Shown: piece after piece, positions 2,714 to 9,153 of the stretch
Layout: each line of letters opens with the position of its first letter
Numbering within the stretch: position 1 is the first letter of the stretch
Assembly (NCBI RefSeq): GCF_001643775.1
Contig: NZ_CP011402.1
Coordinates: forward strand, 1,364,432-1,396,431
Reading direction: 5' to 3'
Length of the DNA stretch: 32,000 nucleotides
From: Denitrobacterium detoxificans
GTDB lineage: Bacteria > Actinomycetota > Coriobacteriia > Coriobacteriales > Eggerthellaceae
The notes under the pieces: generated by a model
Told to the model about the DNA's origin: nothing
Database searches by the model: none
What the model saw: only the letters and a program-made list of their open reading frames with translations
Program-made: the position numbers and the translations under genes

Positions 2714-3109
2714 TCCTATCCTTCCCGAGGAGGACGCAACCACAGTAGCTGGAGGCCCTTCCCCGCAGACACGGGCTATGTTGTGTTTTGAGGTAATTAT
2801 ACGCGCTCGATTGAAAACGGGGCAGCTGGGGCAATGCCTGTCACCCTACGGACACAAGCGCGTTCGGCGCGTATAGGCGCTAAAAATGGCATTTGGGCAA
2901 AAATAGCCCGCCCGATGTAAAAAATTCAACGCTGTACAGGTAAATCGGCTACGAGCGGCAACGTAAATGACTTCACGAAATAACTGACCTGGGGAAACAC
3001 AGGATCAGAACTATAGAAACGATCGAAATATTGGGCTCTTCGGTGGTTTCTGTGGGAGAGATTCCGGCATAGGCCCAGCTCAGCGGGCGAAAACAACGAT
3101 CTGGAACTG

Positions 3110-3133
3110 AAACGGCCCCGGGAGGGGCCGTTT
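3110..3133. terminator. Hairpin AAACGGCCCC-GGGA-GGGGCCGTTT inside the IS, upstream of the transposase
   Basis: Perfect 10-bp stem; probably shields the transposase from external read-through. Confidence 0.55.
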
Positions 3134-3191
3134 CCGCGTCATCCGCCTATGATTGCTAAGCCAAATTCAGACAACCGAAGAGGTGTGACGC

Positions 3192-4565
3192 ATGAAGAGT
3201 CTACTACTTCTCGCCCTCGGTCTGGCCCGCACGGTCGTCCTGGGCGCGCGCATCGAGGCCGAGCGCATCGTCGTGAGCGTCCGGCCCTACAAGCGCGAGC
3301 AGCGCCGCTGCCCCGTATGCGGCAGGGCCTGCGACTTCTACGACATGGCGAACCGCGGGGCCCCCAGGCTGTGGAGGGCGATGGACCTGGCGCGCTCGGC
3401 CTGCTACCTGGAGTACGCGCCCTGCAGGGTGCGCTGCCCGGAGCACGGCGTGCGCACCGAGGCCGTCCCCTGGGCGCGGCACGGGGCGCGCTTCACGCGT
3501 GACTTCGAGGACTGGGTGGCGTGGCTGGCGGTCCGCTGCACCGCCTCGGCGGTCTCCGAGCTCGCCCGCGTCGAGTGGCACAGCGTGGGCGGCGTGTGCA
3601 GGCGCGTCTACGCCGAGCTGGAGGCCGCGCGCGGCGCCTCGAGGTTCGACGGCGTGCGCCGCATCGGCATCGACGAGACGTCGTACAAGAAGGGCCACAA
3701 GTACGTCACGGTGGTCGTCGACCACGACCGCGGCTGCCTCATCTGGGCGCACGAGGGCACCGGCAAGGACGTGCTCAACCTGTTCCTCGACGAGCTCACG
3801 CGCGAGCAGAGGCGCGCCATAGAGGTGGTGACCGCCGACGGCGCGAGGTGGATAAGGCAGCTGGTCAAGCGCCGCTGCCCCAACGCGAGGTGGGTCATGG
3901 ACCCCTTCCACGTGGTCCAGTGGATGAACGACGCGCTCGACGCCGTGCGCTGCGAGGAGTGGAACGCCGCCAGGGCCGCCGCCAGGGCCGCCAGGCCCAG
4001 GCCCGAGGGCAAGCGCGGCAGGCCTGCCAAAGGCGAGCTGCCGCCCGAGGAGGTCAGGGCGCTCGAGGAGGAGGCGGCCTCCATCAAGGGCAGCCGCTAC
4101 GCGCTCGTGAAGAACCCCGAGGACCTCACCGACGGCCAGAGGGCGAGGCTCGAGGCGCTCAAGAAGAGGGCCGGCTCGCGGCTGGTCAGGGCCTGGGAGC
4201 TCAAGGAGGACCTGCGGGCCGTCTTCCGGGCAGCCGACGGCTCCGAGGCCGCCGAGCTGCTCGACGACTGGATGCACAGGGCCGCCTACTGCAAGATCGC
4301 CAAGGTCGTCGCCGTGGAGAAGAAGGTGCGCCGCCGGCGCGACGACATCATCGCCGCAGTCGAGCTCGGCATCAGCAACGGGCGCGTAGAGGCCATCAAC
4401 AACAAGATCAAGGTGACGGTGAGGATGGGCTACGGCTTCCGCAACACCGACAACCTCGTGGCCCTGCTCATGCTCAGGTGCGGCGACTGCCAGCCCCAGC
4501 TCCCGGGTCGCCCGGTGAAGGCGAGGAAGAAGGGCGTGAAGGGAGCGAAGAGCGTTGCTGCCTAG
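3192..4565 (+). CDS. ISL3-family transposase
   Basis: 457 aa; N-terminal Zn finger CPVCGRACDFYD, GIDETSYKKGHKYVTVVVDHD, VTADGARW...VMDPFHVVQWMNDALD, C-terminal ISNGRVEAINNKIKVTVRMGYGFRN. Confidence 0.96.
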   Translation: MKSLLLLALGLARTVVLGARIEAERIVVSVRPYKREQRRCPVCGRACDFYDMANRGAPRLWRAMDLARSACYLEYAPCRVRCPEHGVRTEAVPWARHGARFTRDFEDWVAWLAVRCTASAVSELARVEWHSVGGVCRRVYAELEAARGASRFDGVRRIGIDETSYKKGHKYVTVVVDHDRGCLIWAHEGTGKDVLNLFLDELTREQRRAIEVVTADGARWIRQLVKRRCPNARWVMDPFHVVQWMNDALDAVRCEEWNAARAAARAARPRPEGKRGRPAKGELPPEEVRALEEEAASIKGSRYALVKNPEDLTDGQRARLEALKKRAGSRLVRAWELKEDLRAVFRAADGSEAAELLDDWMHRAAYCKIAKVVAVEKKVRRRRDDIIAAVELGISNGRVEAINNKIKVTVRMGYGFRNTDNLVALLMLRCGDCQPQLPGRPVKARKKGVKGAKSVAA

Positions 4566-4754
4566 GCTAGCCCCTTGTCACACAAACTACCGAAGCCTCA
4601 AATATTGCTTCGATAGCAGCCGCAACCTGTACAGCATTGATTATTTGCATATGATCGTCCGGTTTTCGCCCAATGACCCCAATATGACACAAATCACAGT
4701 TCCTCATCAGTGCACGGCAAGTCATGTCCACATTGCTGCGGGCCCTGTCGTGAG

Positions 4755-4843
4755 TCAAATTTGGCACCTACGTGCCGCCCCAAGGGCTTTTTAGGCTTAG
4801 CCGTTATTTTGACTCGTAGTGTTGTCCTGACTGGTAATCAAAC
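4755..4843 (-). ncRNA. tracrRNA-like RNA (type II CRISPR), orphan
   Basis: Minus-strand sequence GTTTGATTACCAGTCAGGACAACACTAC-GAGT-CAAAAT-AAC-GGCTAAGCC-TAAAAA-GCCCTTGGGGC-GGCACGTAGGTGCC. Upper stem pairs 25/28 positions with the 36-nt repeat (GTG variant, GU allowed), then a GA/GAGU bulge and a GUUUUG/CAAAAU lower stem, a nexus hairpin (4794..4802) and hairpins at 4777..4787 and 4763..4776. 3' end approximate (no clean U-run). Confidence 0.72.
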
Positions 4844-4863
4844 GGAAGTGGAGGCGTGAGCGC

Positions 4864-5103
4864 ATGCTGACGTATTCGAAAATAGCAACCATGGGTCATA
4901 CTGCGCTTTTCGAGTATTATCCCGAGGGCGATACCTCAAAACCAGGTGTTGTATCCTTCGATTTCGATAGCGGGGAATGCGAAATCACTTGCTTAGCGGA
5001 TGGCGACCGTCATTCGCGATACGCCAACCATCTCGCTAATGCCTTAGAAAGCCAGCATGCTGGCGATGGGGTCGTTCCGTCGGGTACGATAATGTGGTAT
5101 TAA
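4864..5103 (+). CDS. Hypothetical small protein (79 aa)
   Basis: GGAGG at 4850..4854 is 9 nt upstream of the ATG; MLTYSKIATMGHTALFEYYPEGDTSKPGVVSFDFDSGECEITC... Confidence 0.55.
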   Translation: MLTYSKIATMGHTALFEYYPEGDTSKPGVVSFDFDSGECEITCLADGDRHSRYANHLANALESQHAGDGVVPSGTIMWY

Positions 5104-5152
5104 AATTTTTCGAACAGGCTATGAGCCGCCTATGGGCGGCCGGAATGGCCAT

Positions 5153-5225
5153 TGGCACGCCACTGAAGAGTCGAACCCGATACGCGGCTTTGGAGGCCGA
5201 CGCTCTTCCATTGAGCTAGTGGCGT
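5153..5225 (-). tRNA. tRNA-Trp(CCA)-like gene, possibly degenerate
   Basis: ACGCCAC TA GCTC AATGGAA GAGC G TCGGC CTCCAAA GCCGC GTA TCGGG TTCGACT CTTCA GTGGCGT G CCA. Perfect 7-bp acceptor stem, 4-bp D-stem, loop CTCCAAA (anticodon CCA) and encoded CCA end, but poor T-stem (G-C, two G-U, C.C, U-A) and 3-nt variable loop. Confidence 0.6.
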
Positions 5226-5322
5226 ATGGTATAAAGATTGCGAAGGGTTCCCCCTCGGTCTTGGACGGAGGCTGGAACCCTTTCTCTGTTCTCGCTTTAT
5301 TCGACGTATCACCCCATCCTCG

Positions 5323-5358
5323 GTTTTGGAGCAGCGTCATTCTGACTGGTAATCAAAC
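5323..5358 (+). repeat. Type II CRISPR-like direct repeat R1 (36 nt)
   Basis: GTTTTGGAGCAGCGTCATTCTGACTGGTAATCAAAC. Confidence 0.93.
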
Positions 5359-5388
5359 GTTATGCGCGTATTTGATATACTACGCATG

Positions 5389-5426
5389 GAAGCCCCCACG
5401 ATTTACAACTGAGTCGCCGGGGCTTC
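5389..5426. terminator. Hairpin GAAGCCCC...GGGGCTTC in block 1
   Basis: 8-bp perfect stem next to the stop codon of the minus-strand ORF; plus strand followed by TTCATTTTC. Confidence 0.5.
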
Positions 5427-5427
5427 T

Positions 5428-5670
5428 TCATTTTCTGATCACGTCAATCAAGTTTCCACTCTTATCAAGAATGGTCACCCAATCGAACTCCGCCGCATAC
5501 TCTTCGTTTTTGATCAGACCACGAATGGCTGCGCACAAGTCGGAATCGGTTATATGCAGAGACTCGTAGTTGTCGATCACGAGCCTCTTCATTCCTTTCT
5601 TGCCGATGGACTTATCAAAGTAATTCTTGACGGCACCATGAGCGTTTCGCGACGTAAGCAGCGTTTTCAT
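5428..5670 (-). CDS. Hypothetical small protein in block 1 (80 aa)
   Basis: MKTLLTSRNAHGAVKNYFDKSIGKKGMKRLVIDNYESLHITDSDLCAAIRG...; frame stays open upstream through repeat R2 (ORF 5428..5754), so it may be a 5'-truncated gene. Confidence 0.45.
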   Translation of the reverse strand: MKTLLTSRNAHGAVKNYFDKSIGKKGMKRLVIDNYESLHITDSDLCAAIRGLIKNEEYAAEFDWVTILDKSGNLIDVIRK

Positions 5671-5720
5671 CTCAATACCATTCAGCAATCGGCCGTCTTG
5701 TCCCAAATTACGCGACCATC

Positions 5721-5756
5721 GTTTTGGAGCAGCGTCATTCTGACTGGTAATCAAAC
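5721..5756 (+). repeat. Type II CRISPR-like direct repeat R2 (36 nt)
   Basis: GTTTTGGAGCAGCGTCATTCTGACTGGTAATCAAAC, identical to R1 and R3. Confidence 0.93.
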
Positions 5757-5772
5757 AGATTCGGGAAAGAAA

Positions 5773-5819
5773 AAGCCAGTTAGGTGAACCCTCAACTTAA
5801 GCGGGCCGCTAACTGGCTT
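5773..5819 (-). terminator. Inverted repeat AAGCCAGTTAG...CTAACTGGCTT, probable minus-strand terminator
   Basis: Perfect 11-bp stem, 25-nt loop; minus strand continues TTTTTCTTT. Confidence 0.55.
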
Positions 5820-5882
5820 GCCAAAAATATAACATTTTGAGCAATCGAATGAAAGCTTTGCATTCTTCTTATGGAGGGCAAG

Positions 5883-6108
5883 ATGAAGGTTCCTAACCGC
5901 GTCAACATCCTGGGCATCCCGTATGATGTCGTCTCTGACGATATGGAGACAATGAGGATGGCTTTATCTCTCCTCGTAGGCAAGTCATCATGTTGCGCAA
6001 GGGGCTGCCCCGCGAGAAGCGCGAGCAGACGTATCTGCACGAGCTGGTTCATGGCATCTTGGATCAGCTTGACTACTTGGAGCTGTACGAGGACGAGCAC
6101 CTGGTGCA
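5883..6108 (+). pseudogene. Fragment of phage-type ImmA/IrrE-like zinc peptidase, frameshifted and truncated by repeat R3
   Basis: MKVPNRVNILGIPYDVV... in one frame, then NEDGFISPRRQVIMLRKGLPREKREQTYLHELVHGILDQLDYLELYEDEHLVQ in another; HELVH motif; coding similarity ends exactly where R3 begins (6109). Confidence 0.65.
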
Positions 6109-6144
6109 GTTTTGGAGCAGCGTCATTCTGACTGGTAATCAAAC
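6109..6144 (+). repeat. Type II CRISPR-like direct repeat R3 (36 nt)
   Basis: GTTTTGGAGCAGCGTCATTCTGACTGGTAATCAAAC. Confidence 0.93.
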
Positions 6145-6398
6145 CGCGCCATCGCGCAGCCATACCCCTGGCGCGCGTGGTAGTCCACCTCGTGCCCGCA
6201 TCGGTCGAGCCGCCATAGGCTCTCGGACGTGGCACGCTATATGCGCCCATCGAACGTGGGCACCTCGATGAAAATGCGCATAATCACCTTCTAATCTAAT
6301 GTAAGTGGCGCTATAATGATTTAGGCGGTACTTGCCCGGTCATGGACGGGGTGTAGGCCGCTATCTTTTTACTCTAAGCATGCCCCTCTGCTTATCAG

Positions 6399-6434
6399 GT
6401 TTTGGAGCAGTGTCATTCTGACTGGTAATCAAAC
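6399..6434 (+). repeat. Type II CRISPR-like direct repeat R4 (36 nt)
   Basis: GTTTTGGAGCAGTGTCATTCTGACTGGTAATCAAAC (one substitution vs R1-R3). Confidence 0.93.
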
Positions 6435-6495
6435 ATGAGAATGCGCATGTTGCTCCCTTAGGCATGAAAAAGCGCCTATGAAGTCGCTAAATTGC

Positions 6496-6523
6496 TTGAT
6501 ACATAAACTCTGTTTGATATAAT
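6496..6523 (+). promoter_or_regulatory. Sigma70-like promoter
   Basis: TTGATA-N16-TATAAT; predicted start at about 6530, the first base of a hairpin. Confidence 0.5.
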
Positions 6524-6529
6524 TTATTC

Positions 6530-6563
6530 GAAGCCCGACGCGGCAACGCAGCGTCAGGGCTTC
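6530..6563. terminator. Hairpin GAAGCCC-G-ACGC...GCGT-CA-GGGCTTC, T-rich downstream on plus strand
   Basis: 7-bp plus 4-bp stems; followed by ATTTGTTTTCCC on plus strand. Confidence 0.5.
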
Positions 6564-6854
6564 ATTTGTTTTCCCATCTTGTAACGCTGCCGTCCTTTAA
6601 GGCAAAAAGGATTTCTTGAACATTCGAGTAATCAGACTCAGGATCACTCAACGATTCCTCAAAGTGTTTCAAGAATCGCTTGTCATTCATAGCGCTATCA
6701 AGATTGCTCAGAACAATCCTTAATCTGCTTTCCGCCTTTCGAAACTTTGTATCTGCTTTTGCTATATTGCCAGCAACCGCCAAATAGCCATTTCCATCAG
6801 GGCATTTTGCTTCCCAGAGTACACCGACAGCTCCTATAGCATAATCAAACTTCG
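6562..6854 (-). pseudogene. Gene fragment in block 4, 5' end apparently truncated at repeat R5
   Basis: Open frame KFDYAIGAVGVLWEAKCPDGNGYLAVAGNIAKADTKFRKAESRLRIVLSNLDSAMNDKRFLKHFEESLSDPESDYSNVQEILFALKDGSVTRWENK*; the only ATG upstream of the coding-like part lies inside the repeat. Confidence 0.4.
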
Positions 6855-6890
6855 GTTTTGGAGCAGTGTCATTCTGACTGCTAATCAAAT
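6855..6890 (+). repeat. Type II CRISPR-like direct repeat R5 (36 nt), degenerate 3' end
   Basis: GTTTTGGAGCAGTGTCATTCTGACTGCTAATCAAAT. Confidence 0.9.
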
Positions 6891-6949: not shown

Positions 6950-7483
6950 TCATGTGGGGCGATATGGCCTAACGCCAAAGTCAACCTCGATGATGCGCCC
7001 GCAATATCTGGGCTTGGCGGGAGCAGGAATCGGACCGGGCTCGCGCTGCCCCATCTCGGCAGCCTTCGGAGCAATCACCGTCTGGAACCAGCCGCAACAT
7101 CCGCAGTGCCACACTGCCCCATCCCACGTAAGTTCCAACGGCCTAAGCTCGAGGCGGTGCCCACATCTGGGACACATGTGCGGCTGTCTCGATATCGCCT
7201 TGAAATAGGGGCTCAGCTCCAGCATACGCCCACCTCCCACTCGTTTGATTGTCAGCCAAAATGACTCCGTTGAATACAAATGGCCCGAATCGTCAATATC
7301 GAAAGCCGCCCTTACTTCTGCATCTTCAGAAGGTCCTTCAGGATCATTAACGGAGTCGCAAGAATAAGCAGAATCGCATACCCTGCAAAGGAAGGGTCGC
7401 CCGACCCACCAAAAAAGACATTCCCTTTGCCAAGCCTTCGTTTGCGTGAACGATTCAAACCAAAAGATGGTCGTTATGAGCAT
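6950..7483 (-). CDS. Hypothetical protein with zinc-ribbon-like CPRCG...CGCC
   Basis: Up to 177 aa; HMCPRCGHRLELRPLELTWDGAVWHCGCCGWF; start uncertain. Confidence 0.45.
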   Translation of the reverse strand: MLITTIFWFESFTQTKAWQRECLFWWVGRPFLCRVCDSAYSCDSVNDPEGPSEDAEVRAAFDIDDSGHLYSTESFWLTIKRVGGGRMLELSPYFKAISRQPHMCPRCGHRLELRPLELTWDGAVWHCGCCGWFQTVIAPKAAEMGQREPGPIPAPAKPRYCGRIIEVDFGVRPYRPT

Positions 7484-7836
7484 CGTAGCCCAGACAACTC
7501 ATTCACGCGTCCATCATGTAGGACACGCAAACAGCCAAATGCAAATACACTTTTCATCAGGAAGGATGCAATTTCAAACGAAGGGCAATGGCCCTAGCAC
7601 TGCCGCGCAACGAGGAACGGGAGGGAAACGATAATGGCAATATTCGCACTACTTACTGCGCCAGCAATGATCATCTCGGTGTTTGCGTTATGCGCCTAGC
7701 AGAACTCATGGGTCGAGCCAACCAACCCAGGAAGCAAACCCCACGTCAATAGCGTATTGACACCTCAACCATCGCATTATATTCTAATCATGTGTTTTTT
7801 GCGTTTATTTGGGGTACAAGGAAGGTAGGTAGCGAA

Positions 7837-8280: not shown

Positions 8281-8398
8281 GACTAACCACTTACACAGGC
8301 ATCATCCAGCACCCTGCCTTCGTCGAATCCGACAGCCAGAAGGGAGGGTGCTGGTTTTTATCACCCACACTAGGGCAAACAAGTCGAAAGGATGACCC

Positions 8399-9079
8399 AT
8401 GAATTACGAGATCGTTGGAGAACCGTATCCGGCAGTCGTATGCCATCTGCAGCGCGGAGAGCAAATGAAAACTGAAAAGGGCTCCATGGTGTGGATGGAC
8501 CCCGTCATGAAGATGGAAACCAACACCGGGGGTGGAGGAATCGGCAAGATGTTCGGACGCATGCTATCAGGTGAGAGCATGTTCCAAAACGTCTACACGG
8601 CGGAAAGCGACGGTATGATCGCGTTCGGATCGAGCTTCCCCGGCCAGATCCTTCCCATCGAGATTCAACCTGGTCAGGATTTCATCGCGCAGAAGATGGC
8701 GTTTCTGGCATCCGAGATGGGCGTAACGCTCGACACGTTCTTCAACCAGAAGCTCAGTGGCGGCTTCTTCGGCGGCGAAGGCTTCATCATGCAGCGCCTG
8801 AGCGGCCAGGGCATGGTATTCCTCGAGTGCGACGGATCGCTCGTTCGCTACGAGCTTGCCGCCGGCCAATCCATGGTAGTCGACACGGGCAACGTACTCG
8901 GATTCACGGGCGGCGTAAATCTACGCGTAGAGAGAATTCAAGGCGCAAAGAACGTCATGTTCGGCGGCGAAGGCCTCTTCAACACGGTGCTCACCGGCCC
9001 GGGCACGGTCTACCTGCAAACGATGCCGCTCGCCAACCTCGTCGACGTGATTGCGGCCCATATGCCTAAGACAGACTAA
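8399..9079 (+). CDS. AIM24/TIGR00266-like family protein
   Basis: 226 aa; MNYEIVGEPYPAVVCHLQRGEQMKTEKGSMVWMD...LTGPGTVYLQTMPLANL pattern of this family. Confidence 0.8.
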   Translation: MNYEIVGEPYPAVVCHLQRGEQMKTEKGSMVWMDPVMKMETNTGGGGIGKMFGRMLSGESMFQNVYTAESDGMIAFGSSFPGQILPIEIQPGQDFIAQKMAFLASEMGVTLDTFFNQKLSGGFFGGEGFIMQRLSGQGMVFLECDGSLVRYELAAGQSMVVDTGNVLGFTGGVNLRVERIQGAKNVMFGGEGLFNTVLTGPGTVYLQTMPLANLVDVIAAHMPKTD

Positions 9080-9153
9080 ATCGAAGCGCTCTGAACAAGC
9101 GTAGACAAGCATTATCACGCAACGCGAGCACGAAACTCGCCCAAACAAGCAGG

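Follow-up and report, generated by a model that had tools for sequence, protein, structure and literature searches.

Gene-sized blocks between type II-A CRISPR repeats, and an orphan tracrRNA, in Denitrobacterium detoxificans and its relatives

How does a CRISPR array (of clustered and regularly interspaced short palindromic repeats) come to hold gene-sized blocks of DNA in the place of ~30-bp spacers? The question was raised by a 32,000-nucleotide (nt) stretch of the Denitrobacterium detoxificans genome (NZ_CP011402.1, positions 1,364,432 to 1,396,431; the whole stretch is called the window, and positions are counted from its first letter). Five direct 36-nt repeats of GTTTTGGAGCAGCGTCATTCTGACTGGTAATCAAAC spanned 5323–6890 of the window, where none was expected (100 shuffles), and a gene for a trans-activating CRISPR RNA (tracrRNA) lay upstream. 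The best reading of the blocks between the repeats, held with middling confidence, is that Cas1-Cas2 on rare occasions integrated long DNA that had not been fully trimmed, and that the window preserves this as a fossil. The features of the locus, with its repeats (R1–R5) and blocks (W0, S1–S4), were as follows (ORF, open reading frame; GC, fraction of G+C).

4757–4843, minus strand: orphan tracrRNA gene, with an anti-repeat (4843–4808), a nexus-like GGCUAAGCC stem and two 3′ hairpins, then AAAUUU
4808–4843, plus strand: the anti-repeat read on this strand, a hybrid "zeroth repeat" TTTGACTCGTAGTGTTGTCCTGACTGGTAATCAAAC, the scar of a cas9-cas1-cas2-csn2 deletion
4844–5322: block W0, 479 bp, GC 0.53, with a 79-aa ORF (4864–5103, plus strand) and a tRNA-Trp(CCA) gene (5153–5225, minus strand)
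5323–5358, plus strand: R1, exact consensus, C13 variant
5359–5720: block S1, 362 bp, GC 0.48, with a complete 80-aa ORF (5428–5670, minus strand) and a terminator-like hairpin
5721–5756, plus strand: R2, exact
5757–6108: block S2, 352 bp, a frameshifted phage gene for an HExxH protein, cut ~13 codons before its end by R3
6109–6144, plus strand: R3, exact
6145–6398: block S3, 254 bp, GC 0.57, no clear gene
6399–6434, plus strand: R4, one change (C13T); the T13 variant is the repeat of Lancefieldella rimae and most relatives
6435–6854: block S4, 420 bp, GC 0.43, a minus-strand gene fragment with its 5′ end cut by R5
6855–6890, plus strand: R5, terminal and degenerate, three changes (that of R4 plus G27C and C36T)
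3034–4599: insertion sequence (IS) of the ISL3 family just left of the tracrRNA gene, transposase ORF 3192–4565 (DDE_Tnp_ISL3, E=1e-66)

Repeats and tracrRNA of the window locus

An earlier note on this DNA had reported the five repeats, with one change in R4 and two more in R5, and intervals of 362, 352, 254 and 420 bp from R1 to R5, all of which were confirmed. It had missed a fifth interval, the 479-bp W0, which is bounded on its left by a sixth direct copy of the repeat (69% identical), the tracrRNA anti-repeat; it had also missed the route by which the cas genes were lost and the spread of such loci over the Atopobiaceae and Eggerthellaceae, cas-positive arrays included. None of the five intervals had the regular ~30-bp spacing of a type II-A array. 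Block GC was 0.43–0.57 versus 0.59–0.60 for the genome and the surroundings.

The locus was 100% identical in GCA_900110565.1 (L100) and in Logan contig L101, and variants of 94–97% identity were found in the ENA/Logan contigs L099, L102 and L109. Its presence in five independent assemblies, one a complete genome, ruled out an assembly artefact, and the shuffles ruled out a chance origin. A generic dispersed repeat was also ruled out, the 36-mer being confined to arrays or array-prophage junctions (10 genome, 37 metagenome and 2 viral matches). The artefact and the dispersed repeat were both ways in which the earlier note had thought it might be wrong. No metagenome match was found for the C13 variant of the repeat alone, and R5 was the sole repeat kept in a relative, L010 (the Eggerthellaceae metagenome-assembled genome, or MAG, RUI283).

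No cas gene adjoined the array, as the earlier note had seen: none was found in the 32-kb window, whose longest ORF (823 aa) encoded an ABC-F ATPase, and no cas domain was on record in the syntenic 15 kb of strain L099. A promoter and terminator scan gave results at background level.

Some further observations concern the end of the array. The last 9 nt of the repeat (TAATCAAAC) recurred at 6842–6850, 4 nt before R5, and were conserved in L099; they may be what is left of a half-site or collapsed unit. An inverted degenerate copy (19/23 nt) of repeat nt 14–36 lay at 7242–7265, ~350 bp past the array, within an ORF (6950–7483, minus strand). The trailer region was variable: window 7114–7691 and 8375–9115 were absent from L010, and between window 7411 and 7398–7593 L099 had another sequence, of 263 bp. 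Trailer GC was ~0.54, under the genome value.

The computed energy of the tracrRNA anti-repeat:repeat duplex was -35.6 kcal/mol. Homologs of the tracrRNA (77–92% identity) were found in ten loci; the one in L029 was on the strand opposite to cas9, 39 nt upstream of it, and the placement was the same in L161 and L162. In an alignment of five sequences, six pairs of the two 3′ hairpins kept pairing despite changes on both sides. The stretch ...GAGUCAAAAUAACGGCUAAGCC... parallels the Streptococcus pyogenes nexus. No Rfam match was obtained for the tracrRNA, even at E<=10. Judged by its pairing with the repeat, its homologs beside cas9 and its conserved hairpins, the minus-strand element that had earlier been called tracrRNA-like is a genuine, orphaned tracrRNA gene.

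When one genome per species was scanned for the exact pattern, the repeat was detected in L. rimae ATCC 49626 and in Atopobiaceae and Eggerthellaceae MAGs. In L. rimae (L009), an array of the same 36-mer (T13 variant) began 57 nt after cas1-cas2-csn2, and its normal spacers were of 29–31 bp. The layout of L029 was alr-udg-tsaE, tracrRNA, cas9 (1387 aa), cas1, cas2, csn2, array; L162 had the same repeat and the full layout, and Coriobacterium glomerans PW2 (L161) had a close repeat variant in the same layout. Cas9 of the cas-positive relatives was of 1387–1394 aa, and Cas1, Cas2 and Csn2 (PF09711) were present. With the same 36-mer following csn2 in L009, L029 and L162, the earlier assignment to type II was borne out and could be narrowed to subtype II-A: the window repeat is a true type II-A CRISPR repeat.

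In C. glomerans PW2 (L161 11329–13380), nine normal spacers were followed by a last repeat with a foreign 3′ end just after ...TGACTGGTAATC, and after it came a 1.98-kb gene-bearing segment and then a solitary full repeat. In L162, a 218-bp unit stood ahead of the degenerate terminal repeat.

Gene-sized blocks in the window and in relatives

The locus set comprised 50 loci, 37 of them added by a metagenome scan. Their 196 intervals fell into two classes, 116 at 28–31 bp and 80 at 202–2569 bp, with none between. The 80 giant intervals represented 33 block families (numbered with G), and five more in D. detoxificans made 38. Every block was bounded by complete 36-nt repeats, and blocks were interleaved with normal spacers, also in cas-linked arrays: the interval series of L. 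rimae was 30, 29, 30, 1106, 30, 1152, 30, 532, 30, 1087, 753, 606 and 597 bp, L025 contained 6 blocks among 40 normal spacers, and L029 a single block among 21. Among the Atopobiaceae strains, trailer-side units (G1, G3, G2 and G4) were in common and leader-side units differed, both normal spacers and blocks.

Blocks of the clade contained complete small genes (membrane proteins, lipoproteins, DUF488, a thioredoxin-like protein, GrpB, a tRNA) and gene fragments cut at the repeat borders; genes were cut arbitrarily, and both orientations occurred. All 597 bp of G4 were colinear with a temperate phage family's terS/terL region (91.6% to L052/L115), G19 contained head genes at 94.6% identity, G12 the repressor end and a membrane ORF, and G24 a lipoprotein gene together with the integrase gene's first ~270 nt, while G21, G7 and G11 derived from the other prophage end. 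In the phage-derived blocks G19, G12, G24, G21 and G5, genes were cut mid-frame. Normal spacers of these arrays targeted the same phages as the blocks. No conserved block termini, as a sign of a miniature inverted-repeat transposable element or IS, were found, and contiguity of adjacent blocks in their source was rejected. In IMG/VR, the G24 end pattern and the reconstructed attP were not found, and the G5 MuF fragment had only a 34% relative.

Several arrays of relatives were rearranged. In L014 (1–6067), the 1.15-kb G5 continued leftwards, with no repeat, into a phage head module of at least 4.8 kb (TerS, TerL, portal, MuF; some frameshifts), which is most simply explained by a phage recombined into the array via homology with the G5 block. 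One-sided junctions of a last repeat with phage genes were also seen, at positions differing among strains. In L017 (1843–2862), an IS30-family transposase gene and gatCA genes replaced everything upstream of G6, an IS-mediated truncation of the array. In L031 (72–3395) the units ran G2, G4, 30, 29, G1, G3, which is the usual series 30, 29, G1, G3, G2, G4 circularly permuted; this is a genuine rearrangement or else a misassembly across repeats at low coverage (2.8x). The L. rimae block G3 (L009 6037–6789) comprised a DUF488 gene and the 5′ part of ilvE, and ran on into the rest of ilvE in L031 (2642–3500), L007, L018 and L042; in L. rimae, ilvE was interrupted by a repeat and two further blocks.

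Strains of D. detoxificans had the trailer-side units S1, S2 and S4 in common and differed in the tracrRNA-proximal units. The order was anti-repeat–W0–S1–S2–S3–S4 in the window and anti-repeat–B1 (362 bp)–B2 (1000 bp, grpB)–B3 (456 bp)–B4 (359 bp)–S1–S2–S4 in L099, which had these four blocks in the place of W0; W0 was present in L109. S1 was common to the window, L099 and L109, S2 to the window and L099, and S4 to the window, L099, L101 and L102. S3 was present in the window and L100 and absent from L099 together with one repeat, a unit-sized difference for which deletion in L099 is the simpler reading, R4 being the T13 variant. The gene-sized intervals with gene fragments described in the earlier note are real, and what strains gain or lose of them is always a whole unit bounded by repeats. 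The ISL3 element was absent from L099, where its flanks joined with an overlap of ~8 bp, probably the target duplication; window 3034–4599 is therefore a later insertion.

The tRNA-Trp(CCA) of W0 (Rfam, 38 bits) occurred in two of the three D. detoxificans strains, not in L099, and is thus an accessory tRNA copy, probably a foreign one. S2 matched phrog_1233 (E=9e-9), and its homologs were of 89 aa and 55–61% identical; one of them, P0007, lay in an Atopobiaceae phage head module between portal/MuF-like genes and the tail tube gene. No match was found for S1 in Pfam, PHROG or the phage database, an exact-protein look-up of its ORF was empty, and Pfam gave no match for the block ORFs. The sole S4 protein homolog among 5.8 billion sequences was the D. 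detoxificans ORF itself, and IMG/VR had no match for S4. No source of a window block was found by DNA in GenBank phages or PLSDB plasmids, or by protein in the GenBank phage collection. The comparison with phage and plasmid data that the earlier note had proposed thus identified S2 as a phage head-module gene and yielded no exact source for any window block.

The note had also proposed a look for a protospacer-adjacent motif (PAM) like NGG at the source junctions. Eight good protospacers of normal spacers were followed by cAGG, tAAG, tAAG, cAGA, cAAA, cAAA, aAAG and gTTT; seven of the eight fit NARR. For the block ends, the flank in the best homolog was read outward on the strand leaving the block. 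NARR was found at G4-left, G5-left (98% source, L014), G12-left, G12-right, G16-left, G21-right and G24-right, and was absent at G4-right, G21-left, G7-right, G8-right, G11-right and S2-right, the last (GGGT) being the only informative block end of the window. It was therefore present at 7/13 informative ends versus a background of 7.6% (P=1.6e-5), and at 4/8 ends when the count was restricted to sources at or above 85% identity (P=0.002). Where both ends of a block were known, as for three blocks, one end or both had NARR. One further end, G19-left, was found after the count of 13 and was without NARR. A PAM-like motif thus occurs at source junctions of the clade, as the note had supposed, though the inferred motif is not NGG and the S2 end lacked it. 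The enrichment is suggestive of a Cas1-Cas2 origin, which it favours but does not prove.

Loss of the cas operon and a repeat-targeting prophage

In the cas-positive L029, the native anti-repeat read on the array strand (TTTGACTCGCAGTGTTGTCCTGACTGGTAATCGGGA) ended in ...GGTAATCGGGA (ATCGGGA) and was followed by cas9. In ten cas-less loci (window 4808–4843, L099 4737–4772, L006, L020, L021, L032, L037, L044, L045 and L046), it ended in ...GGTAATCAAAC (ATCAAAC), which is the repeat's own 3′ end, and a 29–30-nt spacer or a giant block came directly after. The order in L099 was ybeY-dagK-era-recO, then the tracrRNA gene, then the array, with no cas genes. Since the anti-repeat of every cas-less relative had the 3′ end of a repeat and abutted the array, it was recombination between anti-repeat and repeat that deleted the cas operon. 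Anti-repeat and repeat flank this operon in direct orientation and have GCAGTGT and CTGACTGGTAATC in common. At least two crossover classes were distinguished, most loci (the window included) having crossed over in the second shared segment and L099 and L032 in the first. As the crossover points of the window and L099 differ, the cas genes were lost independently or the loci were converted later.

Comparison of these loci shows that the ancestral order was tracrRNA, cas9, cas1, cas2, csn2, leader and array, and that the recombination removed cas9-cas1-cas2-csn2 and the leader and fused the tracrRNA gene to the array. The cas operon was lost recurrently in this way. With the anti-repeat and the repeats standing as direct repeats around the cas operon, type II-A loci of this layout can easily shed all their cas genes in one clean step, and such a deletion explains orphan tracrRNA-plus-array loci.

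A prophage family of oral Atopobiaceae was found at no fewer than three different repeats, once with loss of eight array units. Its tyrosine integrase gene (L011 13364–14470) adjoined attR (...ctgatta/TGACTGGTAATCAAAC/spacer/repeat), and attL (L049 reverse strand ~2071–2110; L024) consisted of repeat nt 1–31 plus ACCTAGATAGG. These junctions define an att core of 11 nt, TGACTGGTAAT, which was also found within the tracrRNA anti-repeat. Hybrid attL/attR sites with an integrase were found for prophages in L011 (13364–14559), L012 (1100–1121), L024 and L049, and for no window block. The prophage junctions were hybrid repeats with the crossover within nt 21–31, whereas block borders coincided exactly with the ends of the repeat, past nt 36 and ahead of nt 1. 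Insertion of prophages in CRISPR repeats of type II-A was reportedly seen by Nozawa in 2011. Prophages that target repeats had so far been described in S. pyogenes; Coriobacteriia have them too.

Origin of the blocks and comparison with known systems

Exact repeat borders with repeat duplication (a hallmark of integration by Cas1-Cas2), bimodal lengths, leader-polarised turnover, phage origin and a PAM at about half of the ends favour integration of long DNA by Cas1-Cas2, and the aberrantly long spacer acquisition that was one of three options in the earlier note fits best. The 254–479-bp blocks of the window would then be giant spacers of foreign, at least partly phage, DNA, joined exactly at both repeat borders with duplication of the repeat. 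The insertions would have been made while the cas genes were still there, with the border chemistry of the Cas1-Cas2 spacer integrase. The adaptation complex of the clade may occasionally integrate an untrimmed long duplex with one end next to a PAM and the other arbitrary, in either orientation, and the lower limit of ~200 bp could reflect the looping of a stiff duplex needed for both ends to reach one integrase. Since then, as strain comparison shows, the array has changed only by loss of whole repeat-plus-block units and by the adjacent ISL3 insertion. A wider claim, which we hold a little less firmly, is that the type II-A adaptation machinery (Cas1-Cas2, Csn2, Cas9) of Atopobiaceae and Eggerthellaceae naturally integrates 0.2–2.6 kb of double-stranded DNA as spacers, ~40% of units being giant. 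Type II CRISPR RNAs use only the 20 nt adjoining the downstream repeat, so that a giant spacer could still work as a guide. Kilobase blocks would also give homology for related phages to recombine into the array.

Several points weigh against this origin. Six of the 13 informative block ends were without NARR, including S2-right with its 83% homolog; the PAM was set post hoc from eight protospacers, and most block sources were just 77–98% identical. PAM-side block ends were commoner at the upstream repeat, the reverse of normal spacers. Five of the seven phage-derived block families came from regions adjoining prophage att sites, which hints at local events with a prophage in the array and not capture of free fragments. 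Some giant intervals were never acquired: G3 consists of native trailer DNA with the 5′ part of ilvE, and G27 is an inter-array segment. Literature searches turned up neither an experiment nor a published example in which Cas1-Cas2 inserted >200 bp in vivo. For D. detoxificans (2.45-Mb genome), no close Csn2 was among the best 120 of 260 Csn2 matches, which reach down to 47% identity, none of its five blocks had an exact source, and as the window has no cas genes, acquisition there can only be historical.

In the main rival reading, the blocks are rearranged remnants of temperate phages or other integrative elements with the CRISPR repeat as attB, and Cas1-Cas2 has no role. Phages would integrate again and again, excise aberrantly and transduce units that carry repeats, and the phage integrase, along with host recombination, would delete internal parts, so that phage pieces are left between repeats. 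Such a phage does exist in the clade (with the L011 integrase, hybrid att sites and at least three repeats, in parallel to phiAP1.1); G4, G12, G24, G21, G7, G11 and G19 came from this family, five of the seven from near its att ends, and its core recurs in the tracrRNA anti-repeat. We nevertheless regard this route as rather unlikely, for all 38 block families lay between complete repeats and not at the hybrid-repeat junctions of an integrase, half-sites within blocks were not general, and borders were at arbitrary gene positions, not at attP arms, in both orientations. No series of core-to-core exchanges was found that joins arbitrary phage DNA to nt 1 of a full repeat, and the PAM-like flanks would stay unexplained. 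The decayed and invaded array that the earlier note had offered as another option is in part right, given the lost cas operon, the ISL3 element beside the locus and the prophages in relatives' arrays; the junctions of those prophages are unlike the block borders. Improbable, in our view, is an origin by homologous recombination or gene conversion between 30-nt spacers and phage protospacers, a double crossover replacing spacer-repeat-spacer by a phage segment. Recombination of spacers with protospacers has a precedent in staphylococci, as cited in bioRxiv 10.1101/2020.10.09.333658. Normal spacers and blocks share phages, the phage DNA contiguous with G5 in L014 shows that blocks and phages do recombine, and the right-end PAM predicted by this route was seen at G12, G21 and G24. 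The internal PAM that it also predicts (nt 31–34 from the left end) occurred in 6/38 blocks versus ~3 expected, which is not significant; the opposite-strand PAMs outside the left ends of G4, G5, G12 and G16 are not predicted, and every block would need two co-oriented spacers against one phage.

We give very little credence to an integron-like gene-capture platform with repeats as cassette boundaries and a dedicated recombinase, the remaining option of the earlier note. Several blocks in relatives hold complete small genes, as listed above, and the repeat-specific phage integrase could in principle move a circle of one block and one repeat; but neither the window locus nor L099 has an integrase in it or nearby (the nearest mobile gene is that of the ISL3 DDE transposase), the repeats are identical, non-palindromic 36-mers and not attC sites, many blocks are truncated or frameshifted and stand in both orientations (S2, S4, G4, G5, G24), and strains differ by leader-polarised gain and unit deletion, not by shuffling. 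Mundane causes, namely inserted DNA that split ordinary spacers, a pair of adjacent arrays or misassembly, are highly improbable. They would suit the ISL3 element beside the window locus, the IS30 beside the L017 array, and G3 and G27, which are chromosomal segments between array parts. For blocks with known sources (G4, G12, G5, G19, G21, G24), colinearity with the source right up to the repeat border, without spacer halves, largely refutes them, and the locus was reproduced in five independent assemblies. Long-DNA integration by Cas1-Cas2 thus stays our preferred reading.

Spacer length is regarded as fixed by a Cas1-Cas2 ruler, a view that hundreds to thousands of bp between intact repeats would challenge if this reading is true. 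There would then be a precedent in nature for a CRISPR integrase that places kilobases of DNA at a specific site, which bears on DNA recording and knock-in tools and on the casposon origin of adaptation, CRISPR Cas1 being still able to make large, casposase-like insertions. Arrays would capture kilobase phage and chromosomal DNA, intact genes included, and become landing pads for phage recombination. The separate parts (type II-A loci, orphan arrays, prophages in repeats) are already known; literature searches found no report of repeat-flanked, gene-sized spacers. The window is a decayed example, and the phenomenon is best studied in cas-positive relatives.

The clade prophage resembles phiAP1.1 of S. 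pyogenes, which inserts itself in CRISPR repeats of type II-A (Varble et al., bioRxiv 10.1101/2020.10.09.333658), in its tyrosine integrase, in a short repeat core as attB, in using any repeat, in its ability to delete units and in belonging to a phage family targeted by the array. It differs in a core of 11 nt versus 8 nt in S. pyogenes and in its host clade, the Coriobacteriia. Such integration leaves whole prophages with hybrid att sites, whereas the blocks are 0.2–2.6 kb fragments between intact repeats. Isolated CRISPR arrays and Tn7-like transposons targeting CRISPR repeats (Mob DNA 2025, PMC11837452) likewise include arrays without adjacent cas genes and mobile elements homing to repeats; here, the orphan state goes back to a specific, recurrent cause (anti-repeat × repeat deletion), and no transposon genes or ends flank the blocks.

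Like integron cassette arrays (intI, attI, attC), the loci consist of tandem gene-sized units split by a recurring site, and whole units are gained or lost between strains; unlike them, they have no intI, their sites are identical 36-mers and not imperfect palindromes, and their units are often gene fragments in either orientation. Casposons and other Cas1-family integrases use Cas1 to insert kilobase DNA, duplicating the target site. If our preferred reading is right, the blocks are alike in being kilobase DNA put in by a Cas1 integrase, with duplication of a target of fixed length (the repeat), but they carry no casposase gene or terminal inverted repeats and are not self-mobile, and their target is a CRISPR repeat. 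No Cas1 ORF or terminal inverted repeat was found in or around the window blocks, where only the 36-nt repeat duplication resembles a casposon.

Among the closest known systems is type II-A CRISPR-Cas itself, with which these loci share a 36-nt repeat starting GTTTTnGAGC, a tracrRNA (anti-repeat, nexus and 3′ hairpins) upstream of cas9 on the opposite strand, and, in relatives, the cas9-cas1-cas2-csn2 order, 29–31-nt spacers and a 3′ PAM, together with a degenerate terminal repeat and leader-polarised strain differences. They depart from it in the inferred PAM (NARR, not NGG), in the window by the absence of any cas gene and by intervals that are all of 254–479 bp, and in relatives by the ~40% of intervals that are of 0.2–2.6 kb.

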